A DNA stretch of 64,000 nucleotides, taken from NCBI GenBank assembly GCA_963815095.1, contig CAWFFH010000003.1, forward strand, positions 576,001 through 640,000. The letters are read 5' to 3'. The notes below the pieces were generated by a model. That model worked only from the letters and a program-made list of their open reading frames with translations. It made no database searches and was not told the origin of the DNA. Source of the DNA: Candidatus Bathyarchaeota archaeon (GTDB taxonomy: Archaea; Thermoproteota; Bathyarchaeia; Bathyarchaeales; Bathycorpusculaceae). Positions within the stretch are counted from its first letter, which is position 1. Every line of letters begins with the position of its first letter. This document shows, piece by piece, positions 4,908 to 8,421 of the stretch. Position numbers and translations under genes: made by a program.

Positions 4908-5177
4908 CTATAGGAGAAGTTCTCCGAGAAGCTTGTTTAGTTCTTCTCGGTTTTTGATGCTTCGGAAAATCGCTTTTCCGCTCGAGTACAATCGGAAGGA
5001 TTTGTCTTGGAACGTTAATTCAAAAATTATTCCGGCAATCTTGTTTTTGAGTGTGGCTTTTTTTAGAATGTTGGCAATGGCTTCATCTTTCTTTTCGTAT
5101 TTGAAGACCACTATAACGTCTTTTTCTGCTCCGCAGGTTCCTTCGATTCGAGAAACGTAGTCATCTATAGTTGTCAT
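4908..5177 (-). CDS. Hypothetical 89-aa protein with an EGTCG motif, coupled to sufS
   Basis: ATG overlaps the sufS TAA (TAATG); natural-looking composition. Confidence 0.7.
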   Translation of the reverse strand: MTTIDDYVSRIEGTCGAEKDVIVVFKYEKKDEAIANILKKATLKNKIAGIIFELTFQDKSFRLYSSGKAIFRSIKNREELNKLLGELLL

Positions 5178-6409
5178 TAGAGTTGCTCAAACTCCTTGAG
5201 GATTTCTATGAAGCGGTCAATTTCCTCTTTTGTGTTATAGATGTAGAAGCTTGCCCGCGCAGAAGACTCGATCTTGAAGATCTGGTGCAAGGGTTGTGCA
5301 CAGTGGTAGCCACTGCGCATCATGATTCCGTAATTGTCACAGAACAGGGCAACGTCATGTGAGGATAAGCCTTTAACGCCAAATGGTATTATGCCGCATT
5401 TCTTTGAGGAGTCACTTGGTCCGTAAACAGTTACTTTCTTGCATTCTGCTATGCGTTTCATCGCGTATTTGGTTAGGTCTTTTTCGTGGCTCAAAACGTT
5501 GTCCATACCTAATTCTTCAAGATACTTCACAGCTGCACCTAATCCTACTACGCCAGCGATGTTAGGAGTGCCAGCTTCAAATTTCCATGGCAACTCATTC
5601 CAAGTTACGTTACAGTGGCCTTTGCCTTTACTGTAAGAGACGTCTTTAATCATTTCGCCTCCACCCTCGTAAGGTGACATGGCTTCCAGTATCTCTTTTT
5701 TTCCGTATAGAACGCCTATACCTGTGGGTCCGAGCATTTTATGTCCTGAGAAAGCCAAGAAGTCTGCGCCTATCTTCTGAACATCCACTTCCATGTGTGG
5801 CACGGATTGGGCAGCGTCGACTAGCATTAACGAGCCGTTGTCATGGACAGTTTTAGTTATGTGTTTAACGTCGTTTGTGACGCCTGTGACGTTTGAGACA
5901 TGGCTTAAGCATGCGATTTTTGTTTTTTTAGTTAATTTGTTTTCGAAGTCTTCATAGTCAAGGGTGCCGTCGTCATGTATGTTGGCGTATTTAATGGTGA
6001 ATCCTTTAAGTTTAGAGATGATTTCCCAGGGCACGATGTTGCTGTGGTGCTCCATTAAAGAAACCAGCACTTCGTCTTCTCTGCAGAGGTTGTTTAAGCC
6101 CCAAGCATACGCAACCAAGTTGATAGCTTCTGTTGTGCCTCGTGTAAAGATTATTTGGCTTGGAGACTCTGCGGTTATGAATTTAGCGATTTTTTCCCTA
6201 GATTTCTCGTAGAGGTCAGTTGCTTCAAGTGAGAGTGTGTGGACTGCTCGGTGTACGTTGCCGTTGTGGTGATGGTAGAAGTCTACTTCTGCGTCTATAA
6301 CTTGGTTGGGCTTCTGGGTTGTGGCTGCGTTGTCAAAGTAGATTAGGGGGCTGCCGTTTACTTTTCGATTTAAAATGGGAAAGTCTTGCCTGATTGCTTG
6401 CGCATCTAT
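5177..6409 (-). CDS. sufS: Cysteine desulfurase, SufS (class II) type; true N-terminus extends upstream of the track start at 6118
   Basis: Open frame from 6409: IDAQAIRQDFPILN...YFDNAATTQKP...NVHR, then MEHHSN, DAAQS, FSGHKMLGPTG, RSGYHCA. No ATG/GTG/TTG before the conserved N-terminus. Confidence 0.9.
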   Translation of the reverse strand: MDAQAIRQDFPILNRKVNGSPLIYFDNAATTQKPNQVIDAEVDFYHHHNGNVHRAVHTLSLEATDLYEKSREKIAKFITAESPSQIIFTRGTTEAINLVAYAWGLNNLCREDEVLVSLMEHHSNIVPWEIISKLKGFTIKYANIHDDGTLDYEDFENKLTKKTKIACLSHVSNVTGVTNDVKHITKTVHDNGSLMLVDAAQSVPHMEVDVQKIGADFLAFSGHKMLGPTGIGVLYGKKEILEAMSPYEGGGEMIKDVSYSKGKGHCNVTWNELPWKFEAGTPNIAGVVGLGAAVKYLEELGMDNVLSHEKDLTKYAMKRIAECKKVTVYGPSDSSKKCGIIPFGVKGLSSHDVALFCDNYGIMMRSGYHCAQPLHQIFKIESSARASFYIYNTKEEIDRFIEILKEFEQL

Positions 6410-6918
6410 GATTTTTTTTCTGCCTCAGGTTTTAGCCTCTTAGAGAGCGTCTTTGCTAGTTCTTCTTCCTCTAATGCCTGTTTTTCTTCAAATGTATGTT
6501 CTTTTGGTAACCAGCTTGGAGCCTCAACATTTCTTTGTGTGAAATACTGTCGTATTGCTCGTTTCAGTGCGCCGACAGCTAGAACTCCGCAGTGGAATTT
6601 GACGTCGGGTAAGCCACCGATTTCTTCCACTACACGCTTCCAAGTTATATCTTTCCAAGCAGTTTCCAAACTTAGGCACTTTATCATTTCTGTGACTATA
6701 CTGGATGTTGCGATGTTGGCGGCGCAGCCGTAACTTTCGAATTGTGCTTTCTCAATTATGTCTTTGTCGCTGATTTTTAGGTAGAAAGTTATCATGTCCC
6801 CGCAAGCTGGGTTCCCAGCTACGGCTACGACTGTGGCATCTTCCATTTTGCCAAGGTTTTTTGGGTTACGGAATAAATCCATTATTTTTGCGTTATATGG
6901 TAAGGGCATTCTTGACAT
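6406..6918 (-). CDS. iscU: Fe-S cluster scaffold IscU/NifU-N with charged C-terminal extension
   Basis: NPKNLG, GNPACGD, YGCAANIA, KFHC. Confidence 0.9.
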   Translation of the reverse strand: MSRMPLPYNAKIMDLFRNPKNLGKMEDATVVAVAGNPACGDMITFYLKISDKDIIEKAQFESYGCAANIATSSIVTEMIKCLSLETAWKDITWKRVVEEIGGLPDVKFHCGVLAVGALKRAIRQYFTQRNVEAPSWLPKEHTFEEKQALEEEELAKTLSKRLKPEAEKKS

Positions 6919-6920
6919 TT

Positions 6921-8144
6921 TTAATCTACTCCTGTTGAGCCAACTATCCCTCTTATACGGTTGACGGCTGTTGGTAGAACTTTCAGAACGTAGGCTATAT
7001 CCTCTTCTGTTTGGTTGCGAGTTGTTTTCATGAGAATGCTGCCGTGTGCTTCACTATAGTGGCGTCCAATGGCAACTAATACGTGGCTGGGCTGGAGGAG
7101 TCTTCTGCTGCATGCACTTCCGCTTGAAACGTAGACGCCGTTGAGGCTCAATTCGATGGTTAATGCTTCGCCTTCTGCTCGAAGTATGCTTACGTTTGCG
7201 TTGTCTGGAGAGCGTTTGTCGCCTTTTGGACCATTAAAGCGTAGATCATCAAGTTCAGCAAATATACCGTCGACAAGCTTATCGCGTAGTGTTCGCATTT
7301 TTGTGGTGTTTGCTTCAAAGTTTTGGAATGCGAGCTCTGAGGCTTTGGTGAAACCTACGATTAATGGGGTGTTTTCAACGCCTGGCCAAAGTTTCTGTGT
7401 TCCAATTTGGCCTTCAAGAATGCGCTCCATGTTTATACCTTCTTTTAGGTACATTGCGCCCATTCCTCTTGGACCCTGAATCTTGTAGCTGCTTAATGTG
7501 GCTAAGTCAACGTTTAGGTTTTGCACGTTTAGGGGTATTCTGCCGTATGCGTCTGAGGCATCGGTGTGGAAGAGGGTTTTGGGGTTTTTTGCTTTTACAA
7601 TGTCTACTGCTTCTTTGATGGGCTGGATTGTTCCAACCTCGTTGTTTACAGATGAGATACTGACTAGTATAGTTTCGCTGTCGACTGCTTCTTTGAGTTT
7701 TTCTAGGTTGATGAAGCCTTCGTTGTTGACTGGGATTTTCTGGGTTGTGAAACCGTATTTCGTCATCATTTCGGCAACTTGTAGCACGTTGATGGGTTCG
7801 ATTTCGGAGATTACGATTTTTTTGCCTCTGTTTTTTTGGCTAAACGCTGCGCCCATGATGGCTAGGTTGTTGGCTTCAGTTTCGCTTGGGGTAAAGGTTA
7901 TTTCTTCGAGGTTTTTTGCGCCTATGTAAGTGCTGATTTTTTTGAAGCTGTTCATTATGACTTCGAACGCTTCCCACCCGGGTTTGTGGGTGAGTGTGGG
8001 GTTGCCGTAGGCTGTTTTATTAAAATAAGGCAACATAGCGTCAACTACTTCTTTGGGAACGATGCAGGAGTTTTCGTTGTCTAAATAAACCTCATGTTTA
8101 ATGCCTTCATGCAGTTTGAGAAGCTCTTTTACGTTTTCAACCAT
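6921..8144 (-). CDS. iscS: IscS/NifS-like (class I) cysteine desulfurase homolog with divergent active site
   Basis: YLDN, YGNP, NNEVGTIQP, SSGSACS; the usual EH is EP and SxHK is SSYK. Start is 8144 or 8159. Confidence 0.8.
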   Translation of the reverse strand: MVENVKELLKLHEGIKHEVYLDNENSCIVPKEVVDAMLPYFNKTAYGNPTLTHKPGWEAFEVIMNSFKKISTYIGAKNLEEITFTPSETEANNLAIMGAAFSQKNRGKKIVISEIEPINVLQVAEMMTKYGFTTQKIPVNNEGFINLEKLKEAVDSETILVSISSVNNEVGTIQPIKEAVDIVKAKNPKTLFHTDASDAYGRIPLNVQNLNVDLATLSSYKIQGPRGMGAMYLKEGINMERILEGQIGTQKLWPGVENTPLIVGFTKASELAFQNFEANTTKMRTLRDKLVDGIFAELDDLRFNGPKGDKRSPDNANVSILRAEGEALTIELSLNGVYVSSGSACSRRLLQPSHVLVAIGRHYSEAHGSILMKTTRNQTEEDIAYVLKVLPTAVNRIRGIVGSTGVD

Positions 8145-8421
8145 ACAGTATCCTACCATAAATTTTGGGACAGATAACTCGTCTCCCTTGCTAGTATCTA
8201 GTTCGACTAAAAAAACCTAACCACAAAGAAGTCTCCGCAGCAACAGTTATGACGTTTAATGCCGCTAACAAGAGCCTAAACAAAAATACTGAATAATACA
8301 ATTTCAATTTAAAGATTTATGTTTTAACCATTATCAATGACAAAACAATGTACCCTGAATTAAATTAAATATAAATAGCACTTCAGAAAATAAAGCGCTA
8401 AGGTGACATTATATAGCTGCA

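Follow-up and report, generated by a model that had tools for sequence, protein, structure and literature searches.

An intact sufS gene without a canonical start codon

The cysteine desulfurase gene sufS of a soil-dwelling Candidatus Bathyarchaeota archaeon lies directly downstream of iscU on the minus strand of the 64,000-nucleotide stretch of DNA analyzed here (the window; G000:C3:576001-640000 of the source genome G000, which is 2.69 Mb in nine contigs and 98% complete), and no ATG, GTG or TTG stands at its 5' end. We consider it probable that this gene is intact and functional and that its translation begins at a near-cognate codon. AUC (6412-6410) is the likeliest one, and AUA (6409-6407) could serve instead or in addition.

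On the minus strand, the 3' end of iscU reads GCA GAA AAA AAA TCA TAG. The sufS frame, which is -1 relative to iscU, reads TGA GGC AGA AAA AAA ATC ATA GAT GCG over the same region, and downstream of GAT GCG it encodes IRQDFPIL...YFDNAATTQKP. An earlier note on this DNA had described both readings, together with the ATA at 6409-6407, its ATAG overlap with the iscU stop, the upstream GAGG and the run of eight A residues (A8) at 6412-6419, and the sequence agrees with that description in every detail. The first ATG, GTG or TTG in the sufS frame is TTG 6118-6116, 97 codons past the ATA, and the resulting open reading frame (ORF) would encode 313 aa. As the note had also stated, initiation there would remove conserved motifs, the match to Pfam Aminotran_5 beginning at residue 24 of the protein read from the ATC/ATA.

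Read from the ATC/ATA, SufS matches TIGR01979 with 588.7 bits (cut-off, 475.1) over residues 5-408 and profile positions 2-399 of 403, and its Aminotran_5 match extends to residue 401 and spans profile positions 1-371 of 371. The translation contains the motifs ..FSGHKMLGP.. and ..RSGYHCAQP.., which presumably hold the pyridoxal phosphate lysine and the active-site cysteine of SufS. This full-length profile match indicates that the gene is intact, that it truly lacks a start and that the frame is not open by chance. The 5' part of sufS is under purifying selection: over codons 2-97, the ratio of nonsynonymous to synonymous substitution rates (dN/dS) between G000 and three relatives that also have no canonical start was 0.108, 0.110 and 0.154.

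The missing start is shared across genera

We compared the 5' junctions of sufS at 166 loci from family f1 and its order, 136 of which were fetched additionally. Two loci without a hit and one without an anchor were left out, and the remaining 163 were anchored on the DFP motif, with positions counted in codons upstream of its D. In this numbering the ATA of the window is at position 8 and the ATC at position 9, and a start was called canonical if ATG, GTG or TTG occurred 8-12 codons before DFP. A canonical start was present at 124 of the 163 junctions. Position 9, where the window has ATC, is ATG in 70 junctions and GTG in 8; position 8, where it has ATA, is GTG in 12 and TTG in 6; the other canonical starts are ATG (22) or GTG (4) at position 10 and ATG at position 12 (2). 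Both codons of the window thus align with canonical starts of relatives. Among the 39 junctions without a canonical start, that of L118 reflects a frame problem, with an ATG visible by eye. This leaves 38 non-canonical junctions, including that of G000, from 11 genera (g1, g18, g25, g26, g29, g45, g61, g63, g69, g77 and g85).

The position-9 ATG usually spans the iscU stop as TAATG, and in the non-canonical junctions TAATC or TAATT replaces TAATG, or the iscU end reads ..CAA TCC TAA with an ATC inside. ATC, ATT or ATA (collectively, ATH) stands at position 9, or at positions 10-11 with one or two inserted codons, in 36 of the 38 (L009, L034 and L156 being judged by eye), and at L141 an ACG takes the place of ATH. 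Position 8, by comparison, is an ordinary hydrophobic codon (TTA, CTG, TTT, CTA and others) in genomes with a position-9 ATG, and CTA, CTG, TTA, CTT, TTT or ATA in the non-canonical genomes. Most of these codons are two mismatches from AUG and so are not plausible starts, and this variability suggests that the codon homologous to the ATA acts as an ordinary hydrophobic residue. The near-cognate codon that is conserved in this alignment is thus the ATH in place of the former ATG, here ATC 6412-6410.

Within g1, the genus of G000, 24 other genomes were sampled. Six of them (G011, G009, G001, G021, G010 and G022) have an ATC, ATT or ATA codon and then ATA or ATT, together with the A8 run, four (G023, G007, G016 and G005) have a variant with a shorter run, AAA ATC ACN ATA/CTA, and 12 have GTG where the window has ATA. 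The g1 variant ATC ACC CTA GAT parallels the ATG ACC TTT GAC of genomes with a position-10 ATG.

In a tree of 25 SufS sequences, non-canonical genomes form two well-supported clades and G000 is unresolved at the base of the genus, at least two state changes being needed. Terminal branches of the non-canonical genomes measure 0.04-0.18 changes per column, and these branch lengths and clades indicate that the missing-start state has outlasted species-level divergence. The missing canonical start of sufS is inherited and widespread in the lineage.

A Shine-Dalgarno-like signal favors ATC over ATA

We next considered the position of the two codons relative to the GAGG within the iscU end. In well-scoring ORFs of G000, GAGG most often precedes the first canonical start by 7-10 nt (56, 67, 38 and 42 cases, respectively); the numbers drop to 21 and 14 at 11-12 nt and to a background of 5 at 13 nt. 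The ATC is 10 nt after GAGG, inside the preferred range, while the ATA is 13 nt after it, at background, which favors the ATC. The anti-Shine-Dalgarno sequence itself we infer solely from this enrichment of GAGG spacings, as a regular-expression search for the 16S rRNA 3' end region returned no match in G000. The ATC is also the only ATH codon retained in relatives whose next codon is CTA, CTG, TTA or CTT. Together, spacing and homology suggest that ATC 6412-6410 is more likely than ATA 6409-6407 to be the sufS start. The earlier note had proposed a near-cognate start overlapping the iscU stop as one of three options; that option proved the best supported, with the start shifted from its ATA to the ATC.

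Initiation at either codon would have the initiator tRNA read AUC or AUA with a third-position mismatch; the G000 initiator tRNA has the usual CAU anticodon, as identified with aragorn (run without intron search; the 40 tRNAs found are an incomplete set). The ribosome would be placed by the GAGG within iscU, or would arrive after termination at the overlapping iscU stop and reinitiate, and a start this weak would keep SufS synthesis low and dependent on iscU translation. We infer both initiation at the near-cognate codon and its coupling to iscU from the sequence.

Other genes with near-cognate start positions

A scan of G000 for well-scoring ORFs with a coding-looking 5' part and no canonical start returned sufS and several others, four of which we checked in relatives. 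In the primase gene dnaG (G000:C1:89782-90840, minus strand; loci L256-L285), an ACG stands 10 nt after GGAG in the 22 g1 genomes listed, whereas G005 and several other families carry ATG as the homologous codon. In a PyrK-like FAD/NAD oxidoreductase gene (G000:C3:948774-949622, plus strand; L286-L315), 14 g1 genomes have an ACG 10 nt downstream of GGAGG, and the remaining genomes have ATG, GTG or TTG at the homologous codon. The ACG of this transcript might instead be edited to AUG by a C-to-U conversion of the kind found in plant organelles. In a CdvB/ESCRT-III-like gene (G000:C5:58152-59039, plus strand; L381-L410), ~13 genomes from four families have ATA, ATC or ATT at the start position, where ~14 others have ATG or TTG; GGAGGG is kept 6-8 nt upstream, and several genomes have an in-frame stop one or two codons before the start position. 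The fourth, a fasciclin-domain gene (G000:C3:1508023-1509117, minus strand), has an ACG 9 nt after GGAGG in G000 only and an ATG in four orthologues; this ACG, found in a single genome, could be an error. None of the four has an upstream ORF from which a ribosome could frameshift.

Near-cognate codons are also enriched at the preferred spacing genome-wide. In coding-looking leaders of G000, ATA, ATC, ATT and ACG account for 15 of 59 codons located 7-10 nt after GAGG, compared to 3 of 56 at control spacings of 14-17 nt and 3 of 45 at 0-3 nt. The conserved ACG or ATH at the relatives' ATG position in the dnaG, PyrK-like and CdvB-like genes suggests that relaxed start choice is lineage-wide. We put roughly even weight on the broader proposal that start selection is relaxed throughout this Bathyarchaeia order, such that AUA, AUC, AUU and ACG would be true starts in a noticeable share of genes, core genes such as sufS, dnaG and the CdvB-like and PyrK-like genes included, would have been exchanged with AUG over evolution and would be truncated or missed by gene callers. 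The sufS gene would then be one case of a lineage-wide property of the initiation machinery.

Several other candidates from the scan were set aside. A fragment of a thiamine pyrophosphate (TPP)-enzyme gene (C3:944637-945281), a DUF1464-like fragment (C5:67232-67942) and an AIR-synthase-like piece (L346) were dropped because they are likely fragments or have a canonical start nearby, and a glycosyltransferase gene (L349) was dropped because an ATG follows 8 codons on. A leuA/cimA-like isopropylmalate or citramalate synthase gene (G000:C3:1098643-1100172, plus strand; L316-L345) was ruled out as a case of an ATA start, since its relatives share a conserved N-terminal extension that has no usable start of any kind. 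This extension (KWGIAL.. before DTTLRDGEQ) is found order-wide. In g1, only TTT AAA separates a TGA from the Trp codon, and an out-of-frame ATG within AAATGG opens a conserved ORF of 7-11 codons (MGY[CR]FI..). Elsewhere in G000, on the reverse strand in the C3:476868 region (L350), a gene whose product starts ..IDNIDLAI.. resembles the fasciclin-domain gene in having an ACG 9 nt downstream of GGAGG, with no canonical start close by.

Frameshifting, assembly error and truncation as alternatives

We also weighed whether SufS might be made only as an IscU-SufS fusion, by -1 ribosomal frameshifting on A_AAA_AAA or by insertion of an extra A by RNA polymerase, with the charged IscU tail as a linker, as the earlier note had offered as its second option. 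The heptamer A_AAA_AAA does stand in the required iscU frame at 6418-6412, two codons before the stop, with sufS in the -1 frame, and seven g1 genomes retain the A8 run (G000 and the six congeners named above). The heptamer is, however, found in just 7 of the 13 non-canonical g1 genomes, the other six (G023, G007, G016, G005, G120 and G187) having only A5. Non-canonical junctions outside g1 all lack it; they, too, have only A5 and retain single sites of the A_AAA type, which are also present in ATG genomes; at G147 (L046), AAAG sites lie farther upstream in the open -1 frame, and at L079 GGGG is the sole slip site. An A-rich iscU tail is as common in genomes with a sufS ATG and is therefore not tied to the absent start. 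As for a stimulatory structure, the 92 nt past the A-run have a minimum free energy of -8.5 kcal/mol against a mean of -11.8 kcal/mol for shuffled sequences (z, +1.28), 185 of 200 shuffles folding at least as well, and there was no match in Rfam. The junction thus has the heptamer of a frameshift site, without the stimulatory structure and without conservation of the slip site. No in-frame iscU-sufS fusion was found among the junctions (in 3 of the 39 non-canonical ones, the position of the iscU stop could not be established), and no fused protein of ~580 aa was among the best 120 of 7978 hits. Frameshifting would, moreover, leave the retention of ATH at the ATG position unexplained, and it cannot account for ATH or ACG at the start position of genes that no ORF precedes. 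We consider a fusion of this kind improbable. Initiation at the out-of-frame ATG 6405-6403 followed by a shift was ruled out because that ATG is not conserved; among the genus junctions compared, it is shared by just G000 and G011.

An assembly or base-calling error, with a true sequence that has an ATG or has nine A residues in a genuinely fused gene, is very improbable, and with it the note's third option of a homopolymer error. Homopolymers are prone to error, G000 has at least one likely indel elsewhere (at the dnaG C-terminus), frameshifts occur within sufS in G010 and G022, and contigs from two of three DNA runs break beside the A-run. Yet a matching ATH ATA junction with A8 is present in six other species-level genomes, and ~30 further genomes from many assemblies have non-canonical junctions without any long homopolymer. 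The read evidence consists of Logan contigs from public runs at depth 2-4. In the read check on the A8 run that the note had suggested, a 151-nt short-read contig from run X2 covers 6287-6437 with no differences and no gaps, but it is a single contig at depth 2. Contigs from X1 and X3 end at 6390 or 6408, restart at 6495 or 6428 and are uninformative on the A-run. RNA run X19 gave pieces of 26-40 nt with 90-95% likeness and long unlike ends, which are probably from another organism. Agreement among many species-level assemblies is a stronger argument against an error than the read support is.

A 313-aa product initiated at TTG 6118, or decay of sufS into a pseudogene, is equally improbable. 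That TTG is the first canonical start and the one adopted by gene callers, and a public collection entry (P0102) has the 313-aa form, 100% identical over 76% of the query. Against this, purifying selection acts on the 97 codons before the TTG (dN/dS, 0.11-0.15), a start there would cut about the first 75 positions of the Aminotran_5 fold, and all relatives keep the sufS frame open, with the TIGR01979 match reaching back to residue 5. The related scenario of a recent mutant among relatives that all have ATG does not agree with that dN/dS or with the 38 non-canonical genomes.

Translation of sufS from a near-cognate codon has points against it as well. At L039, neither ATH nor ACG is present at the start position. 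GTG stands at the ATA position in 12 congeners, which would fit an ATA start if the start had moved there. Within the A8 clade both codons are always ATH, such that ATC and ATA are inseparable by sequence, and the first base of the ATC and part of the ATA are dictated by the overlapping iscU codons and stop. Within the iscU tail, which is rich in Lys and Glu, nearly all non-canonical genomes retain A_AAA or a comparable site for single-tRNA slippage. The X2 contig is the sole read support that bridges the junction and is maybe from the sample behind the assembly. G000 has some indels: its dnaG open frame is 352 aa compared to ~400-410 in relatives, and the dnaG C-terminus is probably frameshifted.

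Comparison with known systems

Bacterial starts other than AUG, GUG and UUG are known: AUU initiates infC and pcnB of E. coli, and NCBI table 11 includes rare ATT, ATC, ATA and CTG starts, with ACG not known to be among them. Like infC and pcnB, sufS is an otherwise ordinary gene whose conserved start position differs from AUG in the third base alone, and initiation there is probably weak and regulated. It differs from them in its archaeal host, in the exchange of its codon among ATC, ATT and ATA across many genera and in the presence of ACG in the lineage. Near-cognate initiation also occurs in eukaryotes (at CUG, ACG, AUU and others), AUA and AUU serve as starts in mitochondria, and archaeal initiation factors are of the eukaryotic type. 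As with eukaryotic near-cognate starts, the sufS codons are one mismatch from AUG and would be read by the initiator tRNA, but the site would be picked by Shine-Dalgarno pairing or coupling instead of scanning. Unlike for the mitochondrial AUA starts, no code change is involved: reassignment of ATA was ruled out by its use at ordinary Ile sites within sufS (e.g., ..QVIDAEV..) and by the normal CAU anticodon. We found no report of such starts in archaea in the full-text literature searched, which does not cover most subscription journals, and the part of a review of archaeal initiation that we consulted names just AUG, GUG and UUG (PMC7531240).

In the part of their work available to us, Huber et al. 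(2019) describe termination-reinitiation at overlapping ATGA and TGATG gene pairs (PMC6728339); the sufS restart codon differs in being non-canonical, a case that this part does not treat (PMC6728339). In common with those pairs, iscU and sufS are co-directed within one operon, the stop overlaps the start (ATCATAG/ATAG here, TAATG in relatives) and the Shine-Dalgarno motif lies inside iscU, as would be expected of a coupled gene pair. Programmed -1 frameshifting is known from the A_AAA_AAT site of Saccharolobus solfataricus fucA, and transcriptional slippage is known from dnaX and insertion sequence (IS) elements. The in-frame A_AAA_AAA just before the iscU stop, with sufS in the -1 frame, resembles the fucA type of site; unlike such sites, the sufS junction comes without downstream structure, heptamer conservation or fused relatives.

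If AUC or AUA, and ACG in other genes, do work as starts in Bathyarchaeia, gene callers restricted to ATG, GTG and TTG would shorten such genes, the 313-aa SufS of the public collection would be a fragment without the first quarter of its fold, and metabolic reconstructions of the abundant, uncultured Bathyarchaeia would inherit the annotation errors. Tolerance of mismatches in the third (AUH) or second (ACG) position, with Shine-Dalgarno pairing or coupling replacing scanning, would offer a natural system for the study of start-codon stringency. A weak start placed on the iscU stop would also link SufS output to IscU translation, a simple means of fixing how much sulfur donor is made per scaffold in Fe-S assembly.

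Operon layout

The operon on the minus strand comprises four ORFs: a NifS/IscS-like gene, iscU, sufS and an 89-codon ORF (Table 1).

Table 1. Coordinates of the operon genes and of the elements at the iscU-sufS junction, in positions of the window
Feature	Position	Strand	Basis
First operon gene, 412 aa, NifS/IscS-like class V aminotransferase	6921..8159	-	ORF list
iscU, 170 aa, NifU_N domain and charged Glu/Lys-rich C-terminal tail, stop TAG 6408-6406	6406..6918	-	ORF list, Pfam
TGA opening the sufS frame, within iscU	6425..6427	-	sequence
GAGG, Shine-Dalgarno-like, within iscU; 10 nt before ATC, 13 nt before ATA	6423..6426	-	sequence
A8 run; ATC begins with its last A	6412..6419	-	sequence
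ATC, likeliest sufS start; 7-nt overlap with the iscU end (ATCATAG)	6410..6412	-	homology to ATG, Shine-Dalgarno spacing
ATA, alternative near-cognate start; 4-nt overlap with the iscU stop (ATAG)	6407..6409	-	sequence
ATG in the iscU frame (out of the sufS frame), opens an 11-codon ORF	6403..6405	-	sequence
sufS coding sequence as proposed, 411 codons from ATC, stop TAA 5179-5177	5177..6412	-	profile matches, dN/dS
TTG, first canonical start codon of the sufS frame	6116..6118	-	ORF list
89-aa ORF, TAATG overlap with sufS	4908..5177	-	ORF list

The best NCBIfam match of the NifS/IscS-like protein is TIGR03402 (NifS) with 367.8 bits, below the cut-off of 530.75. IscU matches Pfam NifU_N with 128.5 bits over residues 8-129, and its matches to the NCBIfam NifU/IscU models are below their cut-offs. 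Past NifU_N, IscU continues in a charged tail of ~40 aa (6406-6530, minus strand) that ends ..EEKQALEEEELAKTLSKRLKPEAEKKS, and this charged tail is conserved throughout the order, including in genomes with a sufS ATG.

The single-base frameshifts within sufS of G010 (L009) and G022 (L024) are probably indel errors of their assemblies; the open frame of G010, 499 aa, comprises sufS and the 89-aa ORF. The 89-aa ORF had no match in NCBIfam or Pfam. A homologue is also located 3' of sufS in G025 (L029), and the product of this ORF may be a partner of SufS.

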